64,000 nucleotides of DNA from Candidatus Binatia bacterium (GCA_963666315.2 CAXXHG010000030.1:1-64000); one strand, 5' to 3'. Positions 2,375 through 26,896 are shown, counted from the first letter of the stretch. Notes: generated by a model from the sequence alone, not told the origin. A program made the numbers and translations.

Positions 2375-3827
2375 CTACTCTTTCCCAATCCGGGCCATTT
2401 TGCTCGCGTACTCACGCACCCGCTGCCAGTCGTATTCACGATACAGCTGCATCTTTTCGGCTTCCATGGAGCCTTCAGCGTGCAAGGCAAGCACGGCATT
2501 GTAGCCACCAAAGTCAGAAGTCGTAATGTCCTGAATCAGATTAATGACCTGGAGCCGCTCCTTGCCCGAGGTACCCTTCTTGCCCTTCATATATTTCTCA
2601 ATCAGTGGCCCGGTTTCTTCGCTGCGGAGATCTTCAACTGCGGGTGCAGTCACCAGAATACCACCGGCCAGGTCCTGGACGTGGGAGAGGGCTTGATGAA
2701 AACCGGCGGCAAAATGGTGCTTGGCAATATTCACCGTGGGTGGGTTGGGGATGACCATACCGCGGTCGGTGGAGCGGGCTTTTATGCACGCCATATGGGT
2801 CAGTGCGCGAGTGGTCTCGGCATAGCTGGCCAGCCAGAATAGCTTTTCCTTTACGTGCGCGGCCTTCTCGATGCCGTTGTATTCGGCCATGAGCCGCGCC
2901 GCGCCAGCCAAAAGATCGAGGAATGGCAGTTTATACGAAATCGCAGTCAGGCGATGATACTCAACGAACGACAAGTGCCATCGGACCGGCAAACGGCCAT
3001 TCGCCCTTCAAGAAAATGCGTTCGTTGGGAACAAACACATCATCAAAAATGGTCAGCGTTTCCGTCATTTTGACGGCTGAGCTGACCGGATGATCAAAGC
3101 TATTGCGTTGGGTGTATGACCCGTAGCCACTCATTAAGAGCTTGAGACCTGTGGTGTCGAGCGGAATAGCAAATGAGACCGCGTAGTCTTTGTCCTCTGC
3201 ACCCATGGCGCGAGTCGGCAGTACGATCATCTCGTTGACGTGTGTGGTGTTCGAGGTATGCATCTTGGCTCCACGCACGACAATGCCGTCGGATCGTTCT
3301 TCGACAATGCGCAGATAGAGATCCGGATCTTCTTGTTCCGAAGGGCGCAGCGCCCGGTCACCTTTGGTATCGGTCTGAGCCAGGGCAAAGCTGACGTCGT
3401 CTTTACAGCAATAGTCGTAAAAGGCTTTGACTCGTTGATAATAGGACGTCCCACACGCCGCATCTACTTTTTGAGAAGTCCGCAGCAGGCCAAACAGCGC
3501 ATCACTGCCCACCACTTTAGCCAGAACGACGAGCGCCCCGCCTTCCCGACAGGCTGTTTCAATCAACTCACTCCGTTTGAGCAATTGTTCGGCATTCTGA
3601 GGCGGCAAGAAATAGCGGCTCATTTCCTCGCCCGTGTCAGAATTTTGTACTACAGCGAGATCCCGAAATTCCGGGTCGTGCATAAGGCGATAGTCGGTGG
3701 CTTCGTGATCAATGGCGGTCTGGATGAGTGGATGCTGGGTGACATCAGTAAGACGCTGGCCACGAAAATACACCAGTCGGTCATCTTTCAGGCTTTCTTT
3801 GTATTGCTCGACCGTACGTAGCGGCAT
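2375..3827 (-). CDS. 4-hydroxyphenylacetate 3-hydroxylase (HpaB)/4-hydroxybutyryl-CoA dehydratase family flavoprotein; frameshift near 2970
   Basis: ORFs 2961-3827 and 2375-2992 are consecutive halves; motifs AQTDTKGDR, GIVVRGAKMHTS, FDDVFVPNERIF, QDLAGG, HAEGS. Confidence 0.85.
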
Positions 3828-4247: not shown

Positions 4248-4783
4248 CGCTGCAGCTGATCAAGCGTATACGTCCCAGCCGTGGGCTCTAACTCGCCTTC
4301 GAACGACTCCATAATCCGCGCCACCATGCCTTAGATACCGATCGCCAGCGCAAGCTCGACCATTTGGCGTGGGCCCAAATCTTTCTCTAAGGCTTGAAAA
4401 GTTTCTTGTGATGCTTTGACATTTTGTGTCACTTCATCGGTAAAGCGTAAGACTCGCTTTTCCAAGTCGTTAAAGGCTGCGGCTCCTTGGGGGATCGCTT
4501 CGACCTGTTCGTCCGTGACTCCCGTCTCTTTGGCAATTGGGACGTGCTGGGTCCATTCATAATTGGCCCCAGTTAGATGCGCTACTCGCAAAATAGCCAG
4601 CTCACGCAGGTGGGCATCCAGCTCTTGCTTGGTCGGAATGGATAGACCAAAAGACAGCAGCGGTAAGGCATTATTCGGCGCATTCAGGAACATGCGCATA
4701 ATATTGAGTGGCGGTAATTTTTCTGCTGCCGTGCGGACTTTTTCTGGGAGGTCTTCAATATTTGGGTAGGGTATACGAGCCAT
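4244..4783 (-). CDS. carboxymuconolactone decarboxylase/AhpD-like family protein; in-frame TAA at 4331-4333
   Basis: MARIPY start; RELAILRVAHLTGANYEWTQH motif; frame continues GMVARIMESFEGELEP after the stop. Confidence 0.8.
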
Positions 4784-4918
4784 GGGCTCTCCTTTAGGTA
4801 GGCATAAAATAGGCACCGACCCTAACGTGCAGAGACGCCAGAAGTCAATGCGCGCACCCCTTTCCTGGGTTGTCGATCTAATCCTTATGAGTCCTCGCCC
4901 AGTCCTTCTTTTTCCAAG

Positions 4919-4948
4919 TTGACCATGCTCATATGACTATAGTAGGCT
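4919..4948 (+). promoter_or_regulatory. promoter/operator of TA operon
   Basis: TTGACC-N18-TAGGCT with palindrome TCATATGA in the spacer. Confidence 0.4.
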
Positions 4949-4976
4949 AAGAGTCGAAAGACGAGGGGGGGTCCGT

Positions 4977-5204
4977 ATGGATAAAAATATCTCTGCGAGT
5001 CAGTTCAAAATTCACTGTTTAGCTATACTCGACGAAATCGCAAAGTCTGGCGTACCTCTGATTGTTACCAAACGTGGAAAACCCGTCGCCAAACTCGTCC
5101 CGATTGATGCTTCCGGACCACCCGACCTTCTTGGCAGTGTCCACTACAAACGAGAAGCCGATCTTCTTGCCCCGGTTGATGAATCTTGGGAAGCCGACCA
5201 GTGA
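4977..5204 (+). CDS. Phd/YefM family antitoxin
   Basis: ISASQFKIHCLAILDE...IVTKRGKPVAKLVP. Confidence 0.9.
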   Translation: MDKNISASQFKIHCLAILDEIAKSGVPLIVTKRGKPVAKLVPIDASGPPDLLGSVHYKREADLLAPVDESWEADQ

Positions 5205-5590
5205 TTATCCTCGATACTCACACCTGGATTTGGTTAGTCAGCGACCCATCAAAGCTATCACAAAAGGCCCATGCTGCTATTCATTATGCACAAACAATTG
5301 GAGTCTGCCCAATCAGCTGTTGGGAAATCGCAACGAAGGTTGCCCAAGGAAAGCTTATACTCGACCGAGAAGTCCAGGTATGGGTTCAGCAAGCCGTTGC
5401 CCGACCGCATGTCACTCTAACAGCGATATCGGCAGAGATTGCCATCACCGCCGGCCAACTTGGACAACAAGGGCTTCATGGAGATCCGGCTGATCGGCTT
5501 ATTACTGCAACCGCGATGGAGCATGGAGCCGAATTGGTGACAAAGGACAAAAACTTGCGCGACTTCGCCCTGGTCCGAACGGTCTGGTAA
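5201..5590 (+). CDS. vapC: VapC/PIN-domain toxin
   Basis: ILDTHTWIW, SCWEI, HGDPADRLI, LVTKD; GTGA overlap with the antitoxin stop. Confidence 0.9.
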   Translation: MIILDTHTWIWLVSDPSKLSQKAHAAIHYAQTIGVCPISCWEIATKVAQGKLILDREVQVWVQQAVARPHVTLTAISAEIAITAGQLGQQGLHGDPADRLITATAMEHGAELVTKDKNLRDFALVRTVW

Positions 5591-5684
5591 GGCGCATTTG
5601 TGTCTGTAGACAGGCTTCTCCTCTGGTTCCCCACCGTTCCAATCTCGGTTACACTCCCACCTCCCGTAAGGAGTGGAAGCAGCG

Positions 5685-6758
5685 ATGAGTATCCAGATCC
5701 CCATAACCCACATTGAGAAATCAAAACCAAAAGCGCGCGACCAAGAACTCGGCTTTGGCCAAGTTTTCACCGACCATATGTTCCTCATGGACGGCGTGGC
5801 AGACACAGGCTGGTCCAATCCGCGCATCGTGCCGTATGGGCCTCTCTCACTGGAGCCGGCGACGGTGGCTTTACACTATGCCCAGACTATTTTTGAGGGG
5901 CTCAAAGCCTATCGCTCGCCTGAAGACAAAATTCTTCTCTTCCGTCCCGATCAGAACATTGCACGCTTCAACCGGTCAGCCGCTCGGCTGTGTGTGCCAC
6001 CAATTGACGCAGAACTCTTTCTTTCAGCGCTCAAACAACTCGTGGCATTGGACCACGACTGGGTGCCCCGGGCGCCAGGAACCTCGCTCTATATCCGGCC
6101 GGTTGCCTTTGCCCGCGACCCTGACCTGCGCGTGCGGCCTTCCTCTACATACCAATTCTTCATCATCCTCTCACCCGTTGGCGCCTATTATGCACAGGGC
6201 TTTAAGCCACTCCGTATTCGTGTTGAGGACCACTATATCCGCTCCGTGCGGGGGGGAACTGGAGCAGCGAAGACAGCAGGCAACTATGCCGGCAGTCTGC
6301 TCGCCGGCGAAGACGCGCATCAAGAAGGTTTTGCCCAAGTCCTGTGGCTGGATGGCGTGGAGCAAAAATACATTGAGGAAGTCGGCTCAATGAATATCGC
6401 TTTTGTGATTGACGATGAGCTGGTGACTCCGCCAATTACCGGCACCATCCTCGAAGGAGTCACACGCGCCTCCATGCTCCAGCTTGCCAAAGACTTTGGG
6501 ATGAAGGTGGCTGAACGGCCGATTACGATCACTGAAGTGTTTAGCGCTGCACGTAATGGACAACTCCGCGAGGCATTTGGTGCAGGAACGGCTGCGGTCA
6601 TTTCACCTGTGGGCGAGCTGTCGTATCAAGGCGAAAATATTATTATCAATGACGGCAAAGTCGGCCCGCTGGCGCAACGTCTCTTCGATGAATTGTCAAC
6701 TATTCAGCGAGGTATCAAACCGGATCACCACGGCTGGATGGTGGAAGTCGATTCGTAG
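5685..6758 (+). CDS. ilvE: branched-chain amino acid aminotransferase
   Basis: LHYAQTIFEGLKAY, LYIRP, AKTAGNY, EEVGSMN, ILEGVTR, GTAAVISPVG. Confidence 0.95.
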   Translation: MSIQIPITHIEKSKPKARDQELGFGQVFTDHMFLMDGVADTGWSNPRIVPYGPLSLEPATVALHYAQTIFEGLKAYRSPEDKILLFRPDQNIARFNRSAARLCVPPIDAELFLSALKQLVALDHDWVPRAPGTSLYIRPVAFARDPDLRVRPSSTYQFFIILSPVGAYYAQGFKPLRIRVEDHYIRSVRGGTGAAKTAGNYAGSLLAGEDAHQEGFAQVLWLDGVEQKYIEEVGSMNIAFVIDDELVTPPITGTILEGVTRASMLQLAKDFGMKVAERPITITEVFSAARNGQLREAFGAGTAAVISPVGELSYQGENIIINDGKVGPLAQRLFDELSTIQRGIKPDHHGWMVEVDS

Positions 6759-6957
6759 CTGGCCCAGGTCATCCCAGAATATCAGCCTGCAACTCAACAG
6801 ACCGGTATCTATTCCATTTTGCCTATTTTGCCCATTTTGTAAAACTTACAAAACTTGCGGACTTTGTGGGCTTTGTGGATCGATAGTCAGTCGCCAACCT
6901 TGCGGCTCTTAGCGGAATTTGTTTAATTCGCTCATATTCTACACACAGGAGGACAGC

Positions 6958-8414: not shown

Positions 8415-9503
8415 ATGAAAAGTGCACTGTCCGCATGGCTAGAAAGCCAGGGTACCCCCCTGACTGATGATCGCGGTGTTGAACTGCCTAGCACCTTTAC
8501 GAATGCCCAAGACGAGTACACGGCTGTGTGCGAAAAGGCGGGGCTGATTGATCTGTCCTTTCGCATTCAGGTGAAACTCACAGGTGCAGATCGGGCAGAC
8601 TTTCTCCAGGGCATGCTGTCGAATGATATCAAAGCCTTACGGCCCGGTGACGGCTGCCCGGCAACACTGCTCACAGAACAGGGCCGCATTGTCGCCGACT
8701 TGCGCGTGTATACACGTGAGTCAGCCATTCTTCTCGACATGGATGCCCGCATCACAGACAAGACTATCGAGGCGCTGGATCGCTTTCTTATCGCCGACGA
8801 CGTGGAGATCGAAGACCTGAGTGCGCAGCAGGTAACAGTTGCTGTGCAGGGTCCCGCTGCAGCAGATGCCCTGTCAGCAGCTGGGCTCTCCTCTTTGCCG
8901 GAAAAAGATTTGCAGCATCAGGAGGCCACTCTGGCCGAGGCCTCCATTCGGATTATCCGTTCCGACCAGACAGGCAAAGGAGGATATGAGCTCCATATTC
9001 CAAACGATCAAGCAGCGCACGTCTGGCAGGCTCTGTCTCAAATCGACGGGATTCTTCCGACTGGCCAGAGAGCACTGAATATACTGCGGGTTGAGGCAGG
9101 CATTCCGTGGTATGGGTTGGATATGGACGAAAACAGGATTGTACTGGAAGTCGGTCTGGACCAAGCCATTAGTCTCAATAAAGGCTGCTATCTGGGACAA
9201 GAAGTCGTAGAGCGGGTGTCGGCTCGCGGGCACATGAATCGTCGGCTGTGTGGATTGCTGTTACAAAATACTAGCCAAGATGGGGCCTTGCCCACGGCAT
9301 TGCCTACCAAGGGTGGTAAGCTCTTCCATGATGCAAAAGAAGTCGGCTGGATTACGAGTGTCGTGACATCGCCGAGGATGGGCCGGCCCATTGCTTTGGG
9401 CTATGTCCGGCATGAATATATAGAGCCGGGCACCCAGCTCAAGATTGACAGACCAGGGACAGGCATGATAGCGGAAGTGACCAAGTTACCGTTTCTACAG
9501 TAA
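8415..9503 (+). CDS. GcvT/YgfZ folate-binding aminomethyltransferase-family protein
   Basis: LRVEAGIP and KGCYLGQE motifs. Confidence 0.9.
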   Translation: MKSALSAWLESQGTPLTDDRGVELPSTFTNAQDEYTAVCEKAGLIDLSFRIQVKLTGADRADFLQGMLSNDIKALRPGDGCPATLLTEQGRIVADLRVYTRESAILLDMDARITDKTIEALDRFLIADDVEIEDLSAQQVTVAVQGPAAADALSAAGLSSLPEKDLQHQEATLAEASIRIIRSDQTGKGGYELHIPNDQAAHVWQALSQIDGILPTGQRALNILRVEAGIPWYGLDMDENRIVLEVGLDQAISLNKGCYLGQEVVERVSARGHMNRRLCGLLLQNTSQDGALPTALPTKGGKLFHDAKEVGWITSVVTSPRMGRPIALGYVRHEYIEPGTQLKIDRPGTGMIAEVTKLPFLQ

Positions 9504-9540
9504 ATATTGCTCGTACGAGTAGATGTAACAGGAGGGATAG

Positions 9541-9681
9541 ATGGCACAACTCGGCAAACGATACATGTGTGAAGAGTGCGGGACTGAGGTCCTGTGCAAC
9601 AAACCCGGCGACGGCGCGTTGAGCTGCTGCGACAAAGACATGCCGCTCAAGGAAGCCAAGCCGCTCCCGTCGTCTGACTAA
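9541..9681 (+). CDS. 46-aa desulforedoxin-like Cys4 mini-protein with C-terminal KPLPSSD (not in ORF track)
   Basis: Manual translation MAQLGKRYMCEECGTEVLCNKPGDGALSCCDKDMPLKEAKPLPSSD; AGGAGG RBS; CxxC-x15-CC. Confidence 0.88.
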   Translation: MAQLGKRYMCEECGTEVLCNKPGDGALSCCDKDMPLKEAKPLPSSD

Positions 9682-9711
9682 TACAGCTCTTAGCAACGAG
9701 CATTCATGCTA

Positions 9712-9744
9712 AGAGGAGCGAGGGAAACCTCGCTCCTTCTTTTT
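9712..9744 (+). terminator. Rho-independent terminator
   Basis: AGGAGCGAGG-GAAA-CCTCGCTCCT followed by T tract. Confidence 0.8.
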
Positions 9745-9784
9745 GTGCACTGGACTTCATTGCTATTACACTCAGGCGAGATTC

Positions 9785-11341
9785 ATGCCCTCACCTGCCC
9801 ATACTGCCGATCTTCTTCTCTACGCCGGGCACATCCTCACCCTCGATCCGACCCGGCCTCGGGCGGAAGCGGTTGCTATTGCTGATGGAACGATCCTTGC
9901 GCTTGGTACCGAGCAAGAGCTCCGACCCCTTGTCTCGCAAAAAACACAGACATTGCCCTGCACGGGACATACAGTTTTACCCGGCTTTATCGATCCACAC
10001 CTGCATCTCTTTGCCTGGGCGAGCCGCTACGGTGGAGCCGATCTGAGTACGGCTCAGTCTATCCCCGCAATCCAACATCTGCTCAAGGCACGGCTGGCGA
10101 ACCTGAGGCATATCGGTTCACAAGAATGGCTGCGCGGGTATGGCTACGATGAGTTCTTTCTGACCCCCAAGCGCCATCCGAACCGGCATGACCTGGACGC
10201 CGTCACAACTGACCATCCGATTATCTTACGCCATCGGACCGGCCACGCTGCGGTATTGAATAGCACGGCGCTCCAGCGGGTCGGGATTGATGTCGACTTC
10301 ACGCCGCCTGACGGCGGAAAGATCGAACGGAGTTCGAATGGCGAAGCAACAGGCGTGGTGTATGAGCTCGAGGCCTTCCTGCGGACAGTCATGCCTCCGT
10401 TGTCTTCACAGGAATTTCAATCTGGAGTGAGAACAGTCAGCGCTGCACTCCTCAGACAAGGCATCTGCGCTTTTCATGACGCGGGTGCAGGCAACACACT
10501 GGCTGACTTGGAGCGCTTCTCTCAATTGCGCTCTGACGGGACGCTCCTCCCACACACGACGGTCATGGTGGGCATTGACGCTTTCTCTCAAGTCCTGGAT
10601 GCGAAATGCGAACCCTTCCGCCAACAGGGTCAGGTCCGTCTCGGCAGTATTAAAATCATGCTGCATGAAAGCGGGGGCGATTTGTATCCACACCCTGAGG
10701 ATCTTGCCGAAATGGTCTGGCAGGTCCATCAACACGGCTTTCAGGTTGCCATACACGCGGTCGAGGAATCGCCCGTCTGCGCAGCGCTTGAAGCGATTCA
10801 GCAGGCACAACGTCGTTTGCCTCGTTCCGATCAACGGCACCGGATTGAACACTGCACCCTGTGCCCACCACCCCTGCTCGACGCCTTGGCACAGACGGGG
10901 AGTGTTGTGGTCATGCAACCCGGCTTTCTCCATTTCTATGGAGACAAGTATGTCGCTGAGATTGATCCGGAATTGCACGAGTGGTTGTACCGGATAAAGA
11001 GCTTTCAGGATCGAGGTATTCCCGTGGTGGGAAGTTCAGACTGCCCGATTGCTCCGCAAACACCATTAGCAGCACTGCAAGCCGCAATGACGCGTCAATC
11101 TCAAACCGGTATTTCCCTCAATCCTGCCGAACGACTCTCCCTGTCTGGGGCGATAGCCCTTTTCACAAGCGCTGGGGCGTGGGTGGGGTTTGAAGAACAT
11201 CAAGCTGGCAGAATCATACCTGGAATGCGTGCAGATCTGGTTGTCCTGGATTGCGATTTGACAACGCTTCCACCTGAATCCCTAAGCAGTGCCACCGTCC
11301 AAACAACAATCATTGACGGGCAGGTTGTGTATTCGGCATAA
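9785..11341 (+). CDS. amidohydrolase (YtcJ-like, Amidohydro_3)
   Basis: PGFIDPHLH, AIHAV, RHRIEH, GSSDCP, GMRADLVVLD. Confidence 0.9.
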   Translation: MPSPAHTADLLLYAGHILTLDPTRPRAEAVAIADGTILALGTEQELRPLVSQKTQTLPCTGHTVLPGFIDPHLHLFAWASRYGGADLSTAQSIPAIQHLLKARLANLRHIGSQEWLRGYGYDEFFLTPKRHPNRHDLDAVTTDHPIILRHRTGHAAVLNSTALQRVGIDVDFTPPDGGKIERSSNGEATGVVYELEAFLRTVMPPLSSQEFQSGVRTVSAALLRQGICAFHDAGAGNTLADLERFSQLRSDGTLLPHTTVMVGIDAFSQVLDAKCEPFRQQGQVRLGSIKIMLHESGGDLYPHPEDLAEMVWQVHQHGFQVAIHAVEESPVCAALEAIQQAQRRLPRSDQRHRIEHCTLCPPPLLDALAQTGSVVVMQPGFLHFYGDKYVAEIDPELHEWLYRIKSFQDRGIPVVGSSDCPIAPQTPLAALQAAMTRQSQTGISLNPAERLSLSGAIALFTSAGAWVGFEEHQAGRIIPGMRADLVVLDCDLTTLPPESLSSATVQTTIIDGQVVYSA

Positions 11342-11350
11342 AGAAGACCT

Positions 11351-12059
11351 ATGCCCTCTCCCGCTGTCCTGTACGAAAAGGATGGGCCGTTGGCGGTTGT
11401 CAGCCTGAATCGGCCCACCATGCGCAACGCCTATAACGTCGAGATGCGGGACGATCTGTATGAGATTCTTCAGGCGGTTCGAGACGATCCCGAGGTTCGG
11501 GTCATGATCTTGCGCGGGGAGGGTCCGGGCCTTCTCGACCGGTGGAGATGTGTCGGAGTTCGGCTCAGCCCCCTCCCCGGTTCGGGCCCGAGAGGTACGC
11601 TGGCGCCGCGACAACTGGGGCACGCTGCTCCATTTGCCACAACCGACTATTGCGGCCGTCCACGGTTATACAGTCGGCGGCGGGATGGAAATGGCACTGC
11701 TGTGCGATATATGCATAGCAGCCGATGACACGGTTTTCTTTTTACCGGAAACCAGCCTGGGTATGATTCCTGGTGTGGCCGGGACCCAGACGGCGCCACG
11801 GGCAATCGGGTTAGGCTGGGCCCTGGATATGGTCCTCACTGGACGGCAAGTGAAGGCGGACGAAGCCCTGCAAATCGGCTTGGCAAATCAGGTGGTTCCT
11901 CGGGCCACCCTCTTGACGGCAGCCAAATCTCTGGCATACACACTGTCCCGTTATGATCCAAAGGTCGTAGCCCTGGCAAAACGGGCCGTCCGACAGGGGG
12001 GAGACTTGAGCTTGTCTGACGGATTACGACTGGAACAAAATCTATTTGCAATGGTGTAA
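11351..12059 (+). CDS. enoyl-CoA hydratase/isomerase; frameshift near 11530
   Basis: LNRPTMRNA in ORF 11351; IAAVHGYTVGGGMEMALLCD and LPETSLGMIPG in ORF 11550. Confidence 0.88.
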
Positions 12060-12068
12060 GGAGGGACA

Positions 12069-13624
12069 ATGAACACGTCACAGTTCATCGGCATTCCCGG
12101 CATGCTGTTTCCCGATCAGGAAATCCTGGCGTTTGAAGGCAAAAGGATGACCTATGGAGAGCTCGTGGATCGGATTAAGCGGCTGGCCAGCAGTTTGCGC
12201 GACCAGGGTATTCAGGCGGGCGACCGGGTGGCCATCCTGCAGACCAACTGCATTCAATACATCGAAGCCTATTATGCCACGGCGACCCTGGGGGCTACCT
12301 TTGTGCCGCTGAACTATCGCGCCAAACCGCCCGAACTGGAGTATATGATCACGGCGGCCAACACCAAGATCCTGTTTATAGGCGATCGTTATATTGATCA
12401 GGTCAGTCAGCTCAAACCAAATCTAGGCTGTGTCGAAAATACGTCACGCTCGAGACGCGGCGTGACGACATGCTGCACTACGACGATCTTATCGAACAGG
12501 GTTCGCCTGACATCGAGGAAGCCGAAGTAGAGGAGGACGACCTGTCCATCCTGATGTATACCAGCGGCACAACCTCCCTCCCCAAGGGCGTCATGCTCAC
12601 CTACGGTGGGTTTACCAATTATGTCATCGGTACTGTAGAAATGGCCGATGGGACGCCACGCGGCACCTCACTGCTGTGCGCCCCGCTCTACCACATCGCC
12701 GGCACCATGAATATTATGACCGCGCTCTGGAACGGTAGGAAGATCGCCGTCCTGCGCCAATTCGATACCAAAGAGTGGCTCAAGACCGTCCAGAGTGAGC
12801 AGGTGTCGCACGCCTTCGTCGTCCCAACAATGCTGAAGCAGCTCATCGACCATCCAGACTTTTCTCAATACGATCTGTCCAGCCTGCAGAACCTGTCGTA
12901 CGGCGGTGCGCCCATGGCGTTTCCGGTCATTCGCAAAGCCATCGATCTCTTTCCCGATTCGACCGGCTTTGTGAATGCCTTTGGCCAGACTGAAACCAAC
13001 TCGACCCTGACAGTGCTCGGTCCAGCGGATCACAAACTGAACGGTCCTCCGGAAGAAGTCGAGCGCAACCTCAAGCGTTTGACCTCAGTCGGCCTGCCGC
13101 TGCCGGACGTGCAAGTCCGCGTTCTCGACGAGGACAGCAAAGAACTGCCCGCCAATGAAATTGGCGAAGTCGTCATTCGCACCCCTCGCGTAATGAAGGG
13201 CTATGCCAACCAAGAGAGTGCCACAGCCGCGCTCTTGGATGAAAACGGCTGGCTGCATACCCGTGACATGGGCTATATCGATGAAGACGGCTATGTCTAT
13301 CTCGTTGGTCGCAAGGACGACATCATCATTCGCGGGGGTGAAAATATCGCGCCAGCTGAAATAGAGGCGGTCCTGCACGCCCACCCAGCCATTGACGAAG
13401 CCGCCATCATAGGCGCGCCGGACGAGGATTTTGGTCAGAAAATCGTTGCCTTTGTTGCGCTCAAACCCGGCCAGTCCGCAACCGCAGACGATGTGAGCGA
13501 TTTTTGTAAGGAACGACTGGCAAGTTTCAAAAAACCCGAGGAGATTAATTTCATCGACGAGTTACCCAAGAACCCGCTGGGCAAAGTTCTCAAGAAAGAA
13601 CTCAAAGCCCTCTATGAGGCATAA
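12069..13624 (+). CDS. long-chain acyl-CoA ligase (AMP-binding); frameshift near 12440
   Basis: YTSGTTSLPKG, FGQTE, GWLHTRDMG, RGGENI, PKNPLGKV. Confidence 0.92.
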
Positions 13625-13704
13625 AAAAAGGACGCTCATAACAAGAAGTCTCGGGGTAAAACCAAGAGACCTCCGCATAAGACCTTTTTTGTGAGGACCG
13701 GTTT

Positions 13705-14466
13705 GTGTCCGATCTGATATACGAAAAGCGCGGTAAGGTGGCGTGGCTCCGCTTATCCTGTCCAGACCAGGGCAATCGGCTCACACCGGCAATGGACCAG
13801 GAATTGGCCGCCGTCTGCCAGGCAGTCGAAGACGACGATGCTATCGAAATTGGCGTACTGACAGGCTCAGCGGACATTTTTTGCGAGGGGCTTACACAGA
13901 GCGCGGCGACTGCCCAGGATATTCGTCAGCAGTTTGGCCGCCTGCAGGCTGTTGAAGCGCTTGCGGCATTGACCAAACCGACGCTTGCTGTTCTGAACGG
14001 AAATGCGTTCGGCATCGGTCTTGAGTTGGCCTTAGGCTGCGATCTTCGCCTCGCGGTCTCTACTGCAGAGTTCGGCTTGACCCAGATTACTGAAAACCTC
14101 ATTCCTTTCGGCGGCGGGACACAACGCCTGCCGCGTATTGTGGGACAGGCAAAGGCGCTTGAAATGATTCTGACCGGCAAAAAGGTGGACGCGAACGAAG
14201 CCCACCGTATCGGCCTGGTCAGCGCAGTGGTGGCAGCGGATGATCTTTCTCCCTGTGTTGACGAAGTCCTGTCTGGTCTGTTAGGCAAAGGCCCCATCGC
14301 CTTACGACTGGGTAAAGAAGCCGTACATAAGGCGATGGACCTGACGCTGGATCAAGGGATTCGGCTGGAAGAAGATCTATACGTTCTTCTCCAGACTACC
14401 CAGGATCGAGCAGAAGGCGTAAAATCTTTTTTAGCAAAACGCAAGCCCAGGTTTACTGGACGCTAA
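13705..14466 (+). CDS. enoyl-CoA hydratase/isomerase
   Basis: GIGLELALGCDLR, PFGGGTQRLPR, EGVKSFLAKRKP; Q at the usual second catalytic Glu position (FGLTQ). Confidence 0.9.
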   Translation: MSDLIYEKRGKVAWLRLSCPDQGNRLTPAMDQELAAVCQAVEDDDAIEIGVLTGSADIFCEGLTQSAATAQDIRQQFGRLQAVEALAALTKPTLAVLNGNAFGIGLELALGCDLRLAVSTAEFGLTQITENLIPFGGGTQRLPRIVGQAKALEMILTGKKVDANEAHRIGLVSAVVAADDLSPCVDEVLSGLLGKGPIALRLGKEAVHKAMDLTLDQGIRLEEDLYVLLQTTQDRAEGVKSFLAKRKPRFTGR

Positions 14467-14489
14467 GATAAAAATAGGAGGACAGTAGT

Positions 14490-14606
14490 ATGCCAAACCA
14501 ACTCGGTAAAATGTATTTGTGTGGCAGTTGTGGTGCACAGGTTATCGTGACCAAAGGTGGAGATGGAGCAGTCAAGTGTTGCGGCGCTGAGATGCAGAAA
14601 AAATAG
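14490..14606 (+). CDS. 38-aa desulforedoxin-like Cys4 mini-protein (not in ORF track)
   Basis: Manual translation MPNQLGKMYLCGSCGAQVIVTKGGDGAVKCCGAEMQKK; AGGAGG RBS; CxxC-x15-CC. Confidence 0.88.
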   Translation: MPNQLGKMYLCGSCGAQVIVTKGGDGAVKCCGAEMQKK

Positions 14607-14669
14607 GCCGGCGCTGGAGTGGCCCCTCCCTGGACAGGTCGCTCCGAAGAGAGTGGGCAAAAGTATCGA

Positions 14670-14702
14670 AAAAGGGCAACCGCATGCGGGCGCCCTTTTT
14701 TT
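14670..14702 (+). terminator. Rho-independent terminator
   Basis: AAAAAGGGC...GCCCTTTTTTT stem-loop. Confidence 0.75.
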
Positions 14703-14835: not shown

Positions 14836-15144
14836 ATGCCGGACGGCGTTCCCCCTATCTCTACAGACGAAATTCAGTCCCATATTGTTGAAGCTCTGCC
14901 TGACGCACAGGTACACATCCGCGACTACACGGGTGGCGGCGACCATTACGAAGCCGTTGTCGTGTCTTCGGCGTTTGACGGAAAAAATGCTGTGGCACGG
15001 CACCGATTGGTGTATGGAGCCCTTCAGGATGCCATGGTTGAGCGTATTCACGCGTTGACACTCAAGACTATGACACCCCAAGAATTCGAGGCCGATGCTC
15101 AGAACTCGGGGCTGGTGAATATCGAAACGAACAAAACGTCGTAA
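14836..15144 (+). CDS. bolA: BolA/IbaG family protein
   Basis: GGGDHY, FDGKNAVARHRLVY, IHALTLKT. Confidence 0.92.
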   Translation: MPDGVPPISTDEIQSHIVEALPDAQVHIRDYTGGGDHYEAVVVSSAFDGKNAVARHRLVYGALQDAMVERIHALTLKTMTPQEFEADAQNSGLVNIETNKTS

Positions 15145-15175: not shown

Positions 15176-15520
15176 ATGGAAGATGCTGCTCACCTCAACG
15201 ATGCTGTTCATACCCACATTGATGAGACCGTGAAAAACAATAAAGTCCTGATCTATATGAAGGGCAATCGGGCCTTTCCGATGTGTGGCTTCTCAGCCGC
15301 AACAATTCAAATCTTTGACTCTTTCGGCATCCCGTATGAGACGGTCGACGTGCTGCAGGATCCCTCCATCCGGGACGGAATCAAACGCTATTCCAATTGG
15401 CCGACCGTTCCTCAGATCTACCTGAATGGCGAGTTCGTTGGTGGCTCCGATATCATCCAAGAAATGCACTCACGTGGGGAGTTAGAGCCTCTCGTTCGAG
15501 CGGCGGTTGAAGCAGACTAA
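15176..15520 (+). CDS. grxD: monothiol glutaredoxin Grx4
   Basis: PMCGFS, WPTVPQ, FVGGSDI; adjacent to bolA. Confidence 0.95.
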   Translation: MEDAAHLNDAVHTHIDETVKNNKVLIYMKGNRAFPMCGFSAATIQIFDSFGIPYETVDVLQDPSIRDGIKRYSNWPTVPQIYLNGEFVGGSDIIQEMHSRGELEPLVRAAVEAD

Positions 15521-18009: not shown

Positions 18010-19893
18010 TTACTCCGGTAGCGCAAACACCAGCAAGGCGCTGCCCTTACTCGTGAGTGGTGGCTCGCCCACCAGCGTGACAGCCAAACCGCCGCCACCA
18101 CTGGGGATCGCGACATATTGCCGGCCCCCGGCTTTATACGTCACAGGCTGGGCGCGCATAGAGGAGCCAGTCTGGAATTTCCACAGCAGCTCACCAGTCG
18201 CGTCATCAAAGGCCAGCGCATAGCCTTCCAGATTTCCCGTAAAGACCAGGCCACCAGCAGTAGCCAGCGTGCCACCCATCATGGGGTATGCATCTTGATA
18301 GCGCCATTTGATCTCACCCGTTGACGGATCAATGGCCGACAGGTGACCGTAGGAAGATCCATCATCCCCCTGGGTTTTGCCCGGACCGCCACCCCAGAAC
18401 GGGATGCCCTTAATGAAGATAGACGCTGATTTTGTCATCTGCCAACAGCTCTCAACAGTGGGCACATACATGAGCTGAGTCAGCGGGCTATAGGCTGCAG
18501 TATAGGAACCGTTTTTCCCGCCTACCGAACCGGGACAAATGAACTCTTGCCCTTCTGCAGTTGGGACATATTTGGGGTCAACAATCGGCCGACCCACTTC
18601 ATCAAGGCCCTTCGACCAGTTCAGCTTATCAACGTATTGGGTGCCGTGAAGATATTTTCCCGAAGAGCGGTCCAGCACATACAAATAGCCGTTACGATTG
18701 GGCTGAGCCAACGCTTTGACGATTTCTCCGCTGCGTTCAACATTGATGAGAAATAAATCAGTATTGCCGTCATAGTCCCAGATGTCATGCGGCGTAAACT
18801 GGAAGTACCACTTAATCTCACCAGTGTCCGGATCGAGAGCGAGGACGGAGTCAGTGTATAAATTGTCGCCCTTGCGGATATCACCGTTCCAGTCAGGAGA
18901 GGTGTTCCCCGTCGCCCAATAGAGAAGATTCTGATCCGGGTCATACGATCCAGTCACCCAAGTCGGACCACCACCATGCTTCCAGGAATCGCCGGACCAG
19001 GTCTCGGCGCCCTTCTCACCTTTGTCCGGGATCGTATAGCGGCGCCATTTGCGTTCGCCAGTGTTAATGTCGTAAGCATCAATATAACCACGGATGCCAT
19101 ACTCCCCGCCGGCAATACCGACGATGAGCTTGTCCCGAACGACGAGCGGAGCAACCGTTGAGCTAAACCCGTTAGCATAGTGGTCCATCTCGGTGTTCCA
19201 CACCACCGCGCCGGTCTTACGGTTCAGGGCAATCACACGAGCGTCAAGGGTGGCCATAAAGACTTTGTCTCCGGCAATAGCTGCACCCTTATTCGACGGT
19301 CCACAGCAAACGCGCATGTCATCCGGCAACTGGTGGTCGTAGCGCCATAAGAGCTCGCCGGTCACCGCGTCGAGCGCAAAGAGGTGGTTATATGCGGAAG
19401 TCAGATAGATAATCCCATCCGCAACAATGGGAGACGCCTGCATCTGGGCGGGTATTCCGGTTTGGAACATCCAGGCCGCTTTCATGTCCTTCACGTTGTC
19501 GCGATTGATGTCGGTTAATGGGCTGAAGCGCCAGCCGGCATAATTACCACCATACATGAGCCAGTAGGCAGGATCGTTGGTACCCTGGAGCAAGTGCTCC
19601 TGGGTAACCGGTAGGAAGTCATAGTCGTCAGTCTTGCCTTTTGAGGTGTGCTGATCGTCAGCATCTATCTCAATATGCTCGACATGCTCAGCATGCTCGA
19701 CATGCTCAGCATGCTCAATATGCTCAGCTTCTTCCGCCTTGGCCTCACTTTTGTGTGTGGCTGGTGCGGCTTCTGCAGGTTCCAATTGATCGCCCGTACG
19801 CCCGCCTACGGCATACGCGTCAACCGTCACGCACAACACAGCGGCTAAAAAGCTCGCACCGATAAGGACTGTTTGCAGCCAAGAATTCCGCAT
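18010..19893 (-). CDS. PQQ-dependent alcohol dehydrogenase, predicted lanthanide-dependent
   Basis: Vicinal CC (RVCCGP), GGEYGIRG, WATGN, TPHDIWDYDG with D-x-D; W-docking motifs; AGGAGG RBS before ATG 19893; signal peptide. Confidence 0.93.
   Translation of the reverse strand: MRNSWLQTVLIGASFLAAVLCVTVDAYAVGGRTGDQLEPAEAAPATHKSEAKAEEAEHIEHAEHVEHAEHVEHIEIDADDQHTSKGKTDDYDFLPVTQEHLLQGTNDPAYWLMYGGNYAGWRFSPLTDINRDNVKDMKAAWMFQTGIPAQMQASPIVADGIIYLTSAYNHLFALDAVTGELLWRYDHQLPDDMRVCCGPSNKGAAIAGDKVFMATLDARVIALNRKTGAVVWNTEMDHYANGFSSTVAPLVVRDKLIVGIAGGEYGIRGYIDAYDINTGERKWRRYTIPDKGEKGAETWSGDSWKHGGGPTWVTGSYDPDQNLLYWATGNTSPDWNGDIRKGDNLYTDSVLALDPDTGEIKWYFQFTPHDIWDYDGNTDLFLINVERSGEIVKALAQPNRNGYLYVLDRSSGKYLHGTQYVDKLNWSKGLDEVGRPIVDPKYVPTAEGQEFICPGSVGGKNGSYTAAYSPLTQLMYVPTVESCWQMTKSASIFIKGIPFWGGGPGKTQGDDGSSYGHLSAIDPSTGEIKWRYQDAYPMMGGTLATAGGLVFTGNLEGYALAFDDATGELLWKFQTGSSMRAQPVTYKAGGRQYVAIPSGGGGLAVTLVGEPPLTSKGSALLVFALPE
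19672..19725 (-). repeat. 6 x 9-nt coding tandem repeat, (E-H-[I/A/V])6
   Basis: ATGCTC recurs at 19675, 19684, 19693, 19702, 19711 and 19720 on the + strand. Confidence 0.95.
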
Positions 19894-20216
19894 ATCTTTC
19901 CCTCCTTTACGTGCAAAAATACCACGTAAAACCCAGGCATAGCGCGGTCGAAAAGTACTTGCTTTTCGGTAGCCGGTCAAGGAAGGCAGCCAAACGAAAT
20001 ACCTCGAAGTGAGGACCTCTTGCGTCCTCAACCCGGCCTCAACCTCATCTCATCTGCAGCTCGGAATGCCGCTTTTCTTCCCGCCTGGAAACACAAGGAA
20101 GAATAAAAAATTTCATTCTTTCCTGCATCACCTTGTCAGCTCGAACACTCTGCTATACATCTATACATCCTCAGACACAACAAGAGACGGAAACTGAGGA
20201 AAGAGCAAAGAGGAGC

Positions 20217-21095
20217 ATGAGGAGCATTATGACACAGCATCCCTTCTCAGGTTGTCACTGTGGTACTCTCCTGTTGAGCACCTTGCTTCTCTTCGGTGGG
20301 TGCGGAGGACAAGACGACCCAGATCAAATCGTGCAAAAAATGTCGGCCAAGCAGGAGAGCCCGCCACTCTCCAAGACCCATGCTCCCGAGCCCGGACCTG
20401 CCTCGCCTCCCCCGACTGAGCCGGCATCGTCCCCTCAACCAGAAGCCGCTGGTAGCGGGACTATTGTTGGCCGGATTCTTTTCGATGCAGAGGCTCCGCA
20501 ACGGCAGCCGCTGATCGTCAGCAAAGATACTGCAGTCTGCGGTCAAACAGAGAAATTTTTCGAATCGCTTCTTGTCGGACCGGACAAAGGCATCAAGAAC
20601 ACGGTAGTCTTTTTACGGGATGTCGCTGGCGGAAAACAATTTCCGACTTCAAAAGCACAGTCTGGCCATCCCACCATCGACCAGACTGGCTGCATCTATG
20701 ACCCACATGTGCTCCTCGTTCAGGCAGGGGCAACCGTCGATATTAAAAACAGCGACGGCATTTTGCACAACATCCACACCTATAGCGAGCAAAATCCAGC
20801 CTTTAATATGGCCCAGCCAAAGTTTCAGAAAGTTATCTCGAAGACCTTCCACCAGCCAGAAATCATTCGCGTAACCTGTGACGTTCACGCCTGGATGACG
20901 GCGTGGCTTGTTGTCCAAGACCATCCCTATTATGCCCTCACTGATGAAACCGGGGCATTTCAACTCACCGACGTCCCGTCAGGCGAGTATACACTCAAAG
21001 TATGGCATGAGGAGCTAGGCGAACGGACTATCGCATTGACGGTCACTGCGGGCCAAGAAGCGCCGGTTGAGATAACACTCTCCCGTGCTGGCTGA
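20217..21095 (+). CDS. lipoprotein with cupredoxin-like and carboxypeptidase-regulatory-like domains
   Basis: Lipobox LFGGC; Pro-rich linker; IDQTGCIYDPHV, HNIH, CDVHAWM, TDETGAF...VPSGEY. Confidence 0.8.
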   Translation: MRSIMTQHPFSGCHCGTLLLSTLLLFGGCGGQDDPDQIVQKMSAKQESPPLSKTHAPEPGPASPPPTEPASSPQPEAAGSGTIVGRILFDAEAPQRQPLIVSKDTAVCGQTEKFFESLLVGPDKGIKNTVVFLRDVAGGKQFPTSKAQSGHPTIDQTGCIYDPHVLLVQAGATVDIKNSDGILHNIHTYSEQNPAFNMAQPKFQKVISKTFHQPEIIRVTCDVHAWMTAWLVVQDHPYYALTDETGAFQLTDVPSGEYTLKVWHEELGERTIALTVTAGQEAPVEITLSRAG

Positions 21096-21159
21096 AGAGA
21101 AACATATGGGATATAGGGGGTGCCCTTGCGCGTGCGAGTCGCGAGCGTGACTATTCTCT

Positions 21160-21750
21160 ATGCGGTTCCCTTTGCAGGCCTTGCCACCGTTTCGGATTAT
21201 TCTGCTCTTTATAGTAGTGCCGGCCGCGCTGTCAGCCACACTCTATCAGCCCGATGTGAGCGGTGGCGTCTGGCGTGAGGGCAAAGCCGCCTGGTGGGAT
21301 GTGAAACTACTCGACTGGGGGTTGACGGGCTGGGGGCACGCCCCAAGACAACCCATCGCGTTCAGCCATAAACTGCACGCGGGCGACTATAGCCTGGACT
21401 GCCTATACTGTCACAGCGCAGCTCGAGTCTCCCCGTCTGCCCATGTTCCGCCCGTACAAATGTGTATGGGCTGTCACAAAAAGAAAACGGAAAATCTGGA
21501 AATACAAAAAATTCAGGCCTACTGGAAAAACCAAGAGCCCATACCCTGGATACGGGTCCACACGCTTCCGGCGTTTACCCGCTTTAATCACAAGAGGCAT
21601 GTCCGGGCCGGTGTCGAGTGCCAGTCGTGTCACGGCGCGGTTCAAAAAATGCAACGGGTTGAACAGGTCTCGTCGCTCAAGATGGGTTGGTGTATCACCT
21701 GCCATGAGGAAAATCAGGTAAGCAGAGACTGCCTCATCTGCCACTACTGA
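21160..21750 (+). CDS. actA: alternative complex III pentaheme cytochrome c
   Basis: Five CxxCH motifs (CLYCH, CMGCH, CQSCH, CITCH, CLICH); QPIAFSHKLH; MGWC. Confidence 0.9.
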   Translation: MRFPLQALPPFRIILLFIVVPAALSATLYQPDVSGGVWREGKAAWWDVKLLDWGLTGWGHAPRQPIAFSHKLHAGDYSLDCLYCHSAARVSPSAHVPPVQMCMGCHKKKTENLEIQKIQAYWKNQEPIPWIRVHTLPAFTRFNHKRHVRAGVECQSCHGAVQKMQRVEQVSSLKMGWCITCHEENQVSRDCLICHY

Positions 21751-21776
21751 GGACGGAGTGCATGAAAGAGTTTGCA

Positions 21777-24700
21777 ATGGAGAATGGACTCGATAGACGG
21801 GATTTTCTGAAACTGCTCGGGGTAAGCGCTGCCGCTCCCATGGCGAGCTGTGCCTCAAAGCCGGTTGAAACAATCATTCCGTATGTCATTCAGCCGGAAG
21901 AAATCACTCCGGGTGTGGCGACCTATTACGCCACCGTCTGTCAGGAGTGTCCGGCAGGTTGCGGCATGCTGGTCCGGACCAGAGAAGGCCGGGCCGTCAA
22001 AGTCGAAGGCAACCCATCCCACCCGGTCAACCGGGGCGCCTTGTGCGCGCGTGGCCAAGCGTCGCTGCAAGGACTCTATAACCCTGATCGTATCCGTCAG
22101 CCGCTGCAGCGGAATGAAGCCGGAGACTTCGTACCAATTTCTTGGGCCGAAGCGGAAACGCTGCTGGTCAAACAGCTCCACAGGGTCCGTGAAGAAGGCA
22201 AAGCCGACACAATCAGCTTTGTATCCGGCCAACTCCCCGACAGCGTATATAGCCTTGTCACAAAGTGGCTTGCAGCGCTGGGTTCACATCACCAGGTAAC
22301 ATATGAGCCGTTCGGTTATGAGGCACTGCGCAAAGCCGGCCAGTTGTGCTTTAGCCAGTCGTCCATTCCCACGTACGACATAGCCAAAGCCCGCTTCTTG
22401 GTCAGCTTCGGTGCTGATTTTTTGGAAACCTGGCTGTCTCCCGTAGGCTATGCCAAGGCATTTGGACAGATGCACAGTGCAGCAAATGCTCAAGCCGCCA
22501 AACAGGCGGGAAGATTTGTTCAGGTCGAACCCCGGCTGTCCCTCACTGGGGCAAATGCCGATGAATGGCTGGCCATTAAGCCCGGCAGGGAAGCCTTTCT
22601 CGCGTTAGGCATGGCCCGCCTTATTGTGGAAGACGGCCCAGCTGCATCCATTTCTGTCCAAGAAAAAGAACAGCTCGCTACTCTCCTGAAACCATACACA
22701 CCGGAACACGTTGCCGAGCTGACAGAAATCTCGGTTGAGACCATTCGCCGCTTGGCTCGGGAATTCACGAGCCAGAGCCCCAGTCTTGCCATTGGGGGTG
22801 GAGTAGCGGCCAGTTCTCGGGAAGAGACGGCCACGCTAATCGCCGTTCATCTGCTGAATTATGTAGCTGGGAATATTGGCCGGACCGTCCATTTTCATTC
22901 GCCAAGCAGCCCGACATCCCAGACTAACTCCTATAGCGCCCTTTTGGCATTGATCGAAGAGATGGAGCGGGGAGAAGTCCCCCTGCTCTTCCTGGCCAAC
23001 ACGAACCCGGCGTTCAGCCTGCCGCCATCTGCGGGCTTTGCAGATGCCCTAGAAAAAGTCTCCTTTGTCGTTAGCTTTTCGTCGTTCCTCGATGAGACGA
23101 CCGAACATGCCCATCTCGTGCTACCGGACCACACACCGTTGGAGAGCTGGGGAGATGTCCGCCCCGCAGCCGGAGTATATGGACTGCTGCAACCAGTCAT
23201 GCAGCCGGTGTTTGAAACGCAGGCACTGGGCGACACTCTCCTGTCTGTTGCCGCCCAGGTTGATGGGCAGTTTTCAGAGTCTCTGTCGTGGAAGAGCTTC
23301 TTTGAATACTTGCAGGCGTCTTGGCAAGAACTCTATGGCAAACGCGGCGAAACAACCACCTTTGAAACGTTCTGGCAGCAATCGCTTCAGAACGGCGGCG
23401 TTTGGGAGAACGCTGAGGATACTTCGGTTCAACTCTCCTCAGCAGTATTTGACATAGTATTTTCCAAACCCCAATTCGACGGCTCAGGCGAAGATGCCTT
23501 GACGTTCATTGCCTATCCCTCTTCTCGCTATTTCGACGGCCGCGGAGCCAATAAACCGTGGCTGCAAGAGTTGCCCGATCCCATGACACAAGCAGTCTGG
23601 GATTCGTGGCTTGAGATCCATCCTGAAACAGCCGCACGACTTGGCATTGCCGAGGGAGATCGGCTCAGCGTGACTTCGCCACACGGGACAGTCGAGGCAG
23701 CCGCGTATTTCTATGACGGTCTCCGTCGAGACAGCGTGGCGATGCCGATAGGCCAGGGACATACCAGCTACGGTCGCTATGCGCAGGGACAGGGAGCCAA
23801 CCCAGTTAACTTGCTAGCCGCACAACCAGAAAAAGCCTCCGGCAGCTTTTCGTGGCTTTCAACCACGGTCCAACTGACACGCACCGGCAAACGCGCCCCG
23901 CTGGTGACAACCGACGGCAGTCGCCAGCAGCTTGGTCGGGGCATCGCTCAAGTTACTGATGAGCATACTGAGCACCCCGAATCACATACAGAAGAACATT
24001 CCGTCGAACATGCCGTGTATGACATGTACCCTGCACTCAAGTACGATACATATCGCTGGGGGATGAGCATTGATCTCGCAGCCTGTATCGGTTGTGGCGC
24101 ATGTGTCACGGCGTGTTATGCGGAAAACAATATTCCAGTCGTCGGCAAAGACGCGGTCGCCCAAGGCCGGGAAATGTCGTGGCTGCGTATTGAACGCTAC
24201 TTCGAAGACTCTTCAGTCGTAGACCCCTCAGTCGAAGACTCCTCAGGAGAAGAGCGTGCGCCGGAAACGCGCTTCGCGCCTATGCTATGCCAGCACTGCG
24301 GCAATGCTCCGTGCGAGCCGGTCTGTCCCGTGTATGCGACCTATCATAATCCGGAAGGGCTCAACGCGCAGATCTATAACCGCTGTGTCGGCACGCGCTA
24401 CTGCGCCAATAACTGCCCGTATAAAGTCCGCCGCTTCAACTGGGTTGAGGCCGACTGGCCGCAACCATTACATCTCCAGCTCAATCCTGATGTGACGATA
24501 CGCGAACCGGGCGTGATGGAGAAATGCACCTTCTGTGTACAACGCATTCAAGAGGGGAAAGACCACGCAAAAGACGAAGACCGCCTCGTCCCGCGATGGT
24601 GAAGTCACGCCCGCCTGCGCCCAGACCTGTCCCACGCAAGCCATTACGTTCGGCAATCTGAAAGACCCTGACAGTCGGGTTTCTCAGAACTCTCACGGGT

Positions 24701-24783
24701 CACGGGCGTATAAAGTCTTAGCAGAACTGAATACGAAACCGGCTATTACGTACCTCAAGAAGGTCCGGCGTCGTCCCGAATAA
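21777..24783 (+). CDS. actB: alternative complex III molybdopterin-oxidoreductase-like/4Fe-4S subunit; frameshift near 24590
   Basis: Tat motif DRRDFLK; ANKPWLQELPDP; CIGCGAC, CQHC..APCEPVCP, EKCTFC; final PACAQTCP in ORF 24535-24783. Confidence 0.92.
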
Positions 24784-24791
24784 CATTACTC

Positions 24792-26691: not shown

Positions 26692-26747
26692 GCTTCTCGT
26701 AGTACCGTGTCTAGGTCGAAACTATGCACGTCCGCGCGTTCCTGCTG

Positions 26748-26817
26748 CGACGGGGCTCAGCACGAACGAGGCTTGGACCCAGACTCTTTTGCCGTTCGCC
26801 CTGAGCTTGTCGAAGGG
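26748..26817. repeat. inverted REP-like pair inside the act operon
   Basis: CGACGGGGCTCAGCACGAACG ... CGTTCGCCCTGAGCTTGTCG; related copy at 28706-28758. Confidence 0.65.
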
Positions 26818-26896
26818 GTACGGTGCCGCTACGATATCCGGCTTCAACGTAGACACGGTAGTAGGGCGCGTCCCACGCACCCTAAAATGTAGGGGC

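Follow-up and report, generated by a model that had tools for sequence, protein, structure and literature searches.

Two mini-genes bracketing an enzyme operon

We analysed a 64,000-nucleotide (nt) stretch of DNA from Candidatus Binatia bacterium (GCA_963666315.2, CAXXHG010000030.1:1-64000), hereafter the window, in which two very small desulforedoxin-like genes, Dx1 and Dx2, lie at the two ends of a run of genes encoding an amidohydrolase, a crotonase (crotonase A), an acyl-coenzyme A (CoA) ligase and a second crotonase (crotonase B). The original prediction, made from the sequence alone, had described two paralogous open reading frames (ORFs) of 46 and 38 amino acids (aa) with a shared motif, each with an AGGAGG ribosome-binding site and a downstream terminator, at either end of four co-oriented enzyme genes. 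The coordinates, motifs and folds obtained here agree with that description (Table 1). The AGGAGG stands 5-8 nt upstream of the ATG of both mini-ORFs, the two proteins have LGK.Y.C..CG...V...K.G.G...CC...M in common, and only Dx1 of the two ends with the tail KEAKPLPSSD. The hairpin downstream of Dx1 folds at -28.8 kcal/mol (z -4.98), a value that none of 200 shuffled sequences equalled.

Table 1. Features of the mini-gene locus and its immediate surroundings, in window coordinates
Feature	Position	Strand	Assignment and remarks
YgfZ-like folate-binding protein	8415-9503	+	GCV_T and GCV_T_C (Pfam); context gene, 37 nt upstream of Dx1
AGGAGG ribosome-binding site, Dx1	9530-9535	+	Direct sequence reading
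Dx1	9541-9681	+	46 aa, desulforedoxin-fold, tail KEAKPLPSSD at the C terminus; counterpart of the C-terminal half in fused relatives
Terminator-like hairpin and T-run after Dx1	9713-9748	+	Hairpin scan and RNA fold
Amidohydrolase	9785-11341	+	Amidohydro_3 metal-dependent hydrolase, PF07969 at 270 bits; optional cluster member
Crotonase A	11351-12059	+	Enoyl-CoA hydratase family, ECH_1; reading frame broken in the window by a single spurious base (11527)
Acyl-CoA ligase	12069-13624	+	ANL family, AMP-binding and AMP-binding_C (PF00501, PF13193); one A missing after 12435
Crotonase B	13705-14466	+	Enoyl-CoA hydratase family, ECH_1 at 165 bits
AGGAGG ribosome-binding site, Dx2	14476-14481	+	Direct sequence reading
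Dx2	14490-14606	+	38 aa, desulforedoxin-fold, tail-less; corresponds to the N-terminal half of the fused family
Terminator-like hairpin, then T7, after Dx2	~14668-14701	+	Fold; missed by the simple hairpin scan
BolA	14836-15144	+	Pfam; context only
CGFS-type monothiol glutaredoxin (Grx)	15176-15520	+	Pfam; context only

Both proteins score above the 23-bit cut-off of the Pfam family PF06397, with 28.7 bits for Dx1 and 26.0 bits for Dx2 (27.7 and 24.1 bits in a scan of the whole genome), and neither reaches the cut-off of the NCBIfam desulf_FeS4 domain model TIGR00319 (21.7 and 19.3 bits, cut-off 36.05). Nothing else in the genome (4.99 Mb, 92% complete) matches PF06397. In agreement with the original prediction, no superoxide reductase domain (PF01880) was found in this 92%-complete assembly. 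Codon patterns across related loci indicate that Dx1 and Dx2 are real genes under purifying selection. Over 80 loci, differences in Dx1 fall mainly at third codon positions (1712, versus 619 and 458 at the other two), with 1325 synonymous and 696 non-synonymous changes; over 50 loci, the corresponding values for Dx2 are 911 versus 305 and 153, with 688 synonymous and 373 non-synonymous changes. Contigs from one metatranscriptome, 90-99% alike, cover pieces of the operon including the start of Dx2 (14417-14566). These contigs carry no transcript ends and may reflect DNA carry-over, and we draw no claim of expression from them.

One two-domain protein with a conserved C-terminal tail

The closest public loci mostly carry the submitters' label Candidatus Binatia, and we refer to this clade as Binatia. 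Homologues of Dx1 form 136 clusters of 46-47 aa, every one ending with ...LKEAKPLPSSD, and those of Dx2 form 24 clusters of 36-39 aa, one of which has been named 'desulforedoxin' by NCBI. Elsewhere, the homologues have been called as proteins and are labelled 'hypothetical protein' or 'desulforedoxin'. An exhaustive search of a 50%-identity library of 1.84 billion representatives returned 504 relatives, and the genome scan alone gave 547 confirmed stretches. The family is distributed over Binatia and sister classes, Actinomycetota, sphingomonads and many metagenomes. Forms devoid of metal-binding cysteines match no Pfam or NCBIfam model, and a Cys-less fusion used as query against a protein atlas retrieved 'hypothetical protein' clusters only, most commonly from Actinomycetota.

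The two halves occur in three arrangements. They are encoded apart in the window; Dx2 is directly followed by Dx1 in seven genomes from other classes of the same phylum; and many of the best 150 of the 504 relatives are 80-120-aa fusions of two Dx domains joined by a linker, the second domain carrying the tail. Nearly all of a further 150 'longer' matches are 82-111 aa. The fused form (~100 aa, ending with K-P-L-P-S-S-D) is found in Actinomycetota, sphingomonads and many metagenomes. When the tail was removed before comparison, the C-terminal half of the fusions was nearer to Dx1 in 13/15 cases and the N-terminal half nearer to Dx2 in 12/15. To occur split, adjacent and fused is a classical sign that two halves act together. 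As judged from these comparisons, Dx2 and Dx1 are two separately encoded halves of one small two-domain protein, and we infer, with good support, that they form a Dx2-Dx1 heterodimer in this organism. The earlier proposal that the mini-proteins work as a pair is thus upheld by their adjacency in sister classes, by their fusion in many phyla and by the matching order of the halves, and the actinobacterial two-domain proteins ending with KPLPSSD beside AMP ligases, which the original prediction had put forward, do exist on plasmids.

The fold was checked on models of relatives rather than of the window proteins themselves. The model of a fused relative (P0146) has a predicted local distance difference test (pLDDT) score of 84.3 and a predicted template modelling (pTM) score of 0.71, and is uncertain in the linker only. 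One of its domains superimposes on desulforedoxin (1dxg_A) with a TM score of 0.93 and a root mean square deviation (rmsd) of 0.5 A over 35 columns, and the model of a second relative (P0225) matches 1cfw_A with a Z score of 3.6 and an rmsd of 0.6 A over 36 residues.

The most conserved part of the family is the end of the protein. All 80 Binatia loci encode a tail reading KPLPSSD (72) or KALPSSD (8), from 59 distinct versions of the 21-nt DNA. A terminal Asp is present in 114 of the 146 diverse representatives listed, with the consensus K-E/Q-A/P-K/R-P-L-P-S-S-D; many of the 32 that do not end with Asp look like read-through gene calls. In 49/49 aligned fusions the terminal Asp is invariant. 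The conservation of the PSSD tail that had been predicted therefore holds both within Binatia and across the family. A basic GKR(Y) motif is also nearly invariant. By comparison, CxxC...CC, all four cysteines of which are kept in Dx1 and in Dx2, is present in the tail-bearing domain of only 53/114 tail-bearing relatives, and whole clades without any metal cysteine retain the GKRY motif, the tail and a ligase neighbour. On these alignments, the tail and not the metal cysteines is the hallmark of the family, and the Fe(Cys)4 site, to which the original prediction had pointed, is not the conserved feature. The additional Cys of the 'LC(T/N)K' motif was considered as a catalytic thiol and set aside; it is Cys in 77/114 and Val in a sizeable minority.

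Two further forms were seen among the relatives. Of the relatives that lack a terminal Asp, a few make up sub-clades whose tails end with AAF, SE or VG in place of SSD; nine such two-domain proteins were noted (P0154, P0206, P0189, P0201, P0208, P0269, P0173, P0233 and P0259). In a third architecture (P0203, P0211, P0221, P0225, P0238, P0262, P0265 and P0271), an unrelated helix-hairpin-helix N-terminal domain of ~65 aa replaces the Dx2-like half before the tail-bearing domain. The model of one of these, P0225, has a pLDDT of 74.9 and matches the PDB through its Dx domain only, the best Z score for the N-terminal domain being 2-3.4. A tblastn search of plasmids with this architecture gave no match.

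Loss of the cysteines in so many relatives bears on what the metal does. One Binatia genome (G143) carries a single fused, Cys-less copy with a KPLPSSD tail (L100:6058-6438 (-)); one unassigned ORF separates this copy from znuA-, znuC- and znuB-like genes upstream of it. Considering that cysteines are lost in many relatives and that a Cys-less copy sits beside a znuABC-like operon, the metal may be structural rather than redox iron. In zinc-sparing responses, Cys-less paralogues replace zinc-ribbon proteins, and by analogy the G143 fusion is possibly such a replacement, although this is one case only.

These findings make it highly improbable that the pair is a true desulforedoxin, i.e. a Fe(Cys)4 electron carrier, or an iron donor working with the flanking iron-sulfur (Fe-S) genes or an oxygen-detoxifying system. 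Such a function would agree with the four cysteines and the PF06397 match of both window proteins, and with their surroundings in this clade, in which a YgfZ gene lies upstream of Dx1 in 76/79 Binatia loci with at least 1.3 kb of upstream sequence and BolA and Grx genes are present in 21/60 loci with at least 7.5 kb downstream. However, the Cys-free clades keep both tail and ligase neighbour, G143 has replaced the pair by its Cys-less fusion, no superoxide reductase domain was found in the 92%-complete genome, and outside Binatia and on plasmids no YgfZ, BolA or Grx gene adjoins the pair.

Desulforedoxin itself is a homodimer. The likeness to the Desulfovibrio gigas protein (PDB 1DXG/1CFW) and to the N-terminal domain of desulfoferrodoxin lies in the PF06397 match, the CxxC...CC arrangement and a fold that superimposes with an rmsd of 0.5-0.6 A over 35-36 residues. 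The present proteins differ in that two unlike paralogous halves pair or are fused, that one half bears a conserved 10-residue tail ending with PLPSSD, that cysteines have been lost in about half of the family, that the neighbours are acyl-CoA enzymes instead of superoxide reductase or redox partners, and that Dx1 and Dx2 fall below the cut-off of the TIGR00319 desulforedoxin domain.

Linkage to an acyl-CoA ligase and candidate roles

In Binatia, the gene order YgfZ, Dx1, (amidohydrolase), crotonase A, ligase, crotonase B, Dx2 is kept down to 31-60% identity of the enzymes. Among 63 loci with at least 5.5 kb of downstream sequence, 60 have an intact ligase ORF and a separate Dx2; of the remaining three, two have a fragmented ligase and one (L075) has neither ligase nor Dx2. 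Four loci from other classes (L093, L094, L096 and L097) hold the same five genes in another order, namely crotonase B, crotonase A, ligase, Dx2, Dx1, which argues for selection on the linkage rather than for inherited synteny. On plasmids, where we examined 10 loci out of 19 matching records with incomplete gene tables, the fused gene lies 2-60 nt from a ligase gene on the same strand, on either side of it, in 9/10 loci; the hosts are Rhodococcus, Mycobacterium, Streptomyces, Sphingomonas and Sphingobium. In metagenomes, for which all counts concern one clade of Cys-less fusions, a ligase starts just downstream in 60/70 loci with at least 300 nt of downstream sequence (median gap ~14 nt), and an adjoining ligase is present in 21/27 loci flanked by at least 1.7 kb on each side. 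Taken together, these gene orders are strong evidence for linkage to one acyl-CoA ligase subfamily.

The four-enzyme operon of the original prediction is accordingly kept in part. Linkage to ligase and crotonases is conserved in Binatia, in other classes and in metagenomes, whereas the amidohydrolase is optional: among 63 full-length Binatia loci it is missing in 7 and a remnant in one, and Dx1 there abuts crotonase A; outside Binatia, it is no regular neighbour.

As for the ligases themselves, those linked to the fused gene on plasmids score 295-332 bits against the Binatia ligase (35-38% identity), whereas the four ligase paralogues of the window genome score 125-187 bits. The plasmids carry 3-20 ANL paralogues each, and single plasmids of Rhodococcus, Mycobacterium and Sphingomonas reach 12-20. 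In 3/5 plasmids the linked ligase scores best among 12-20 paralogues; it ranks second in one and fourth, within 7 bits, in another. By these scores, the linked ligases form a subfamily, though not an exclusive one.

MbtH-like proteins offer the nearest parallel to such a pattern. They are non-catalytic proteins of ~70 aa encoded beside an adenylating enzyme of the ANL superfamily, are needed by some paralogous enzymes and not by others, and can act in trans. Here too, a very small protein is encoded beside an adenylate-forming enzyme, at 60/63, 9/10 and 60/70 of the loci described above. We tentatively favour the reading that the pair is an analogue of MbtH, i.e. a non-catalytic, tail-docking partner of an acid-activating enzyme. 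The Dx2-Dx1 heterodimer would partner the enzyme that converts the carboxylic acid of the pathway to its CoA thioester, normally one particular ANL acyl-CoA ligase subfamily, and would dock through its free K-P-L-P-S-S-D-COOH tail. The metal site, which is Cys4 here, would be structural and dispensable; the two crotonases would then process the acyl-CoA, and the amidohydrolase would provide an optional upstream or side step. Ligase binding, tail docking and any effect on ligase activity are what we infer. The parallel has its bounds. There is no relation to MbtH in sequence or fold, the only Pfam match being PF06397, with none for the Cys-less fusions; the partner would be an acyl-CoA ligase and not the A domain of a non-ribosomal peptide synthetase; binding is presumed here; and MbtH has no counterpart of the tail. 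A complex prediction of Dx2, Dx1 and the ligase, scored for the ligase, gave 0.04 and 0.09 against a mark of 0.32, values that speak neither for nor against binding.

Several observations weigh against a ligase partner. A terminator stands between Dx1 and the enzyme genes of the window. The complete Binatia genome G143 has an operon of YgfZ, amidohydrolase, crotonase, ligase and crotonase (L103) without either mini-gene, and if the fused copy on another contig serves this operon it must act in trans. Six of the 27 well-flanked metagenome loci have no adjacent ligase, and the plasmid exception (H16) has none either, its fused gene lying among hydrolases and flavin adenine dinucleotide (FAD) oxidoreductases. 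For five similar-scoring ligases carried by the same plasmids, the gene tables list no adjoining small gene, a weak negative given that these tables are incomplete. In genome G152, the slot of the ligase (L095:6456-7906 (-)) is taken by a two-subunit class I CoA-transferase, Dx2-Dx1 being kept, and the closest ligase found in the rest of G152 shares only 38% identity. At L109, an 825-aa double family III CoA-transferase (4329-6803 (+)) follows the fused gene after 20 nt. The ligase holds this position at most loci and loses it to a CoA-transferase at two, in what looks, from the gene order, like non-orthologous displacement of the activating enzyme. A pure ligase-binding adaptor must then bind unrelated enzymes or work in trans. 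What stays constant across loci seems to be that a carboxylate is converted to its CoA thioester, for which this ligase is the usual enzyme.

The same displacements are easier to reconcile with a common chemical target than with a common docking surface, and they raise the alternative that the tail is a substrate or covalent carrier. Its terminal Asp carboxylate would be activated by the ligase or the CoA-transferase to an adenylate or CoA thioester, the mini-protein serving as a scaffold like LysW or the peptides used as scaffolds in pearlin pathways and the amidohydrolase, where present, releasing the product. LysW, a tiny protein, combines a globular part that binds metal through Cys4 with an acidic tail at the C terminus, and the functional group is the terminal carboxylate of this tail; its partner is the ATP-grasp ligase LysX, and the pathway enzymes recognise the carrier. 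In overall architecture the present proteins are similar, with a small Cys4 domain followed by an acidic tail. Throughout the family only the C-terminal Asp is invariant, both replacements of the ligase also make CoA thioesters from carboxylates, family III CoA-transferases flank the small gene in 3/10 plasmid loci, and the amidohydrolase follows Dx1 in most Binatia loci. We nevertheless regard a carrier as unlikely. Outside the phylum, the small gene is found in ordinary clusters for acyl-CoA catabolism (dehydrogenases, thiolases, hydratases), in which CoA is the carrier; the crotonases act on CoA thioesters, and the amidohydrolase is optional. As assessed by Pfam scan, the operon contains no ATP-grasp or other known carrier-loading enzyme, its neighbours are CoA-dependent, the adduct is hypothetical, and we know of no ANL enzyme that adenylates a protein C terminus.

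The crotonases suggest another possibility, in which the pair would serve the pathway rather than the ligase specifically, by binding the crotonase pair or the acyl-CoA product (as a scaffold, in channelling or as an acyl-CoA-binding protein) or as a small regulator of the cluster. In G152, the pair stays with two crotonases despite the replacement of the ligase, crotonase matches occur in 18/27 well-flanked metagenome loci, and the near-invariant GKR(Y) motif is basic. The gene closest to the small gene is a convergent crotonase in four or five metagenome loci, and several loci without a ligase have such a crotonase directly beside it. Against this, a crotonase-family gene is listed in the stretch shown at 4/10 plasmid loci versus a ligase at 9/10, the ligase lies at distances typical of translational coupling, and there is no hint of a DNA-binding or sensor domain. 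Such a role is, in our judgement, quite unlikely, and a tail-docking partner of the activating enzyme is the reading that we tentatively prefer.

Accessory proteins of another kind are found in the same kinds of cluster. DUF35/ChsH2-type proteins, which combine a zinc ribbon with an oligonucleotide/oligosaccharide-binding (OB) fold and occur with SCP-x thiolases, are likewise small rubredoxin-like accessories beside an acyl-CoA enzyme, and they are present in several of the plasmid and metagenome loci examined. They differ from the present proteins in family (PF12172/PF01796), in having a thiolase as partner and in lacking a conserved C-terminal tail.

A literature search, which did not cover most subscription journals, found no paper on desulforedoxin-like proteins with acyl-CoA ligases or on a PLPSSD tail; papers retrieved on the oxygen tolerance of Clostridioides difficile are unrelated. 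While the fold is known, the tail, the split or fused pairing and the coupling to acyl-CoA ligases appear to be undescribed. Few enzymes of soil and sediment bacteria are duplicated as often as acyl-CoA ligases. If the pair is an activator, it would be a counterpart of MbtH for acyl-CoA ligases and would matter for their heterologous expression. If instead the tail serves as a substrate, acyl-CoA clusters that otherwise look ordinary would, in several phyla, contain a LysW- or pearlin-like system based on an ANL enzyme, and its carrier, borne on a protein, would be of a new kind. The family also includes, for a single fold, naturally occurring versions with and without metal; one of the metal-free copies lies beside zinc-uptake genes.

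Operon enzymes, assembly errors and surrounding genes

The enzymes give only generic pointers to the substrate of the pathway, the crotonases and the ligase matching short-chain or fatty-acyl relatives. The nearest PDB structures are EchA8 and 3-hydroxypropionyl-CoA dehydratase for crotonase A, FadD5 (283 bits) for the ligase and a 3-hydroxypropionyl-CoA dehydratase (5zai) for crotonase B; the sole PDB relative of the amidohydrolase, 3icj, is uncharacterised. The ORF listed for the amidohydrolase starts at a TTG (9743). An in-frame ATG at 9785 matches the N termini of orthologues and lies past the hairpin that follows Dx1. A 408-aa public gene call (P0295) that joins a Dx1-like N terminus to Amidohydro_3 is probably a read-through or frameshift across the Dx1-amidohydrolase junction.

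Crotonase A is broken into two overlapping ORFs in the window, and so is the ligase. Their orthologues are intact single ORFs (235-239 aa for crotonase A, 517-518 aa for the ligase), and comparison of the window with its closest orthologue reveals a one-base insertion and a one-base deletion. Independently assembled contigs of public reads, some of them otherwise identical to the window, lack the base at 11527 and have an extra A after 12435. Because these read contigs correct both sites and the orthologues are intact, the two frameshifts are assembly consensus errors, and the read contigs rule out real pseudogenes. Elsewhere in the window, a HpaB gene, with its N- and C-terminal halves in separate ORFs, and an ActC/NrfD-like gene look split likewise (2378-3827 and 24792-26688).

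Three genes for the handling of Fe-S clusters, encoding the YgfZ-like protein, BolA and the CGFS glutaredoxin, bracket the operon, which seems to lie within an Fe-S maintenance neighbourhood. YgfZ is kept upstream throughout Binatia, and BolA and Grx are kept only in closer relatives; YgfZ is absent at the loci of other classes. We considered whether the pair belongs with these three genes and rejected this, such neighbours being confined to Binatia. Further downstream in the window (18013-28674), a cytochrome c and a solute-binding protein accompany a pyrroloquinoline quinone (PQQ)-dependent dehydrogenase. Next come a multihaem cytochrome, a fusion of a molybdopterin oxidoreductase with a 4Fe-4S domain, and subunits of the NrfD/ActD type, resembling alternative complex III.

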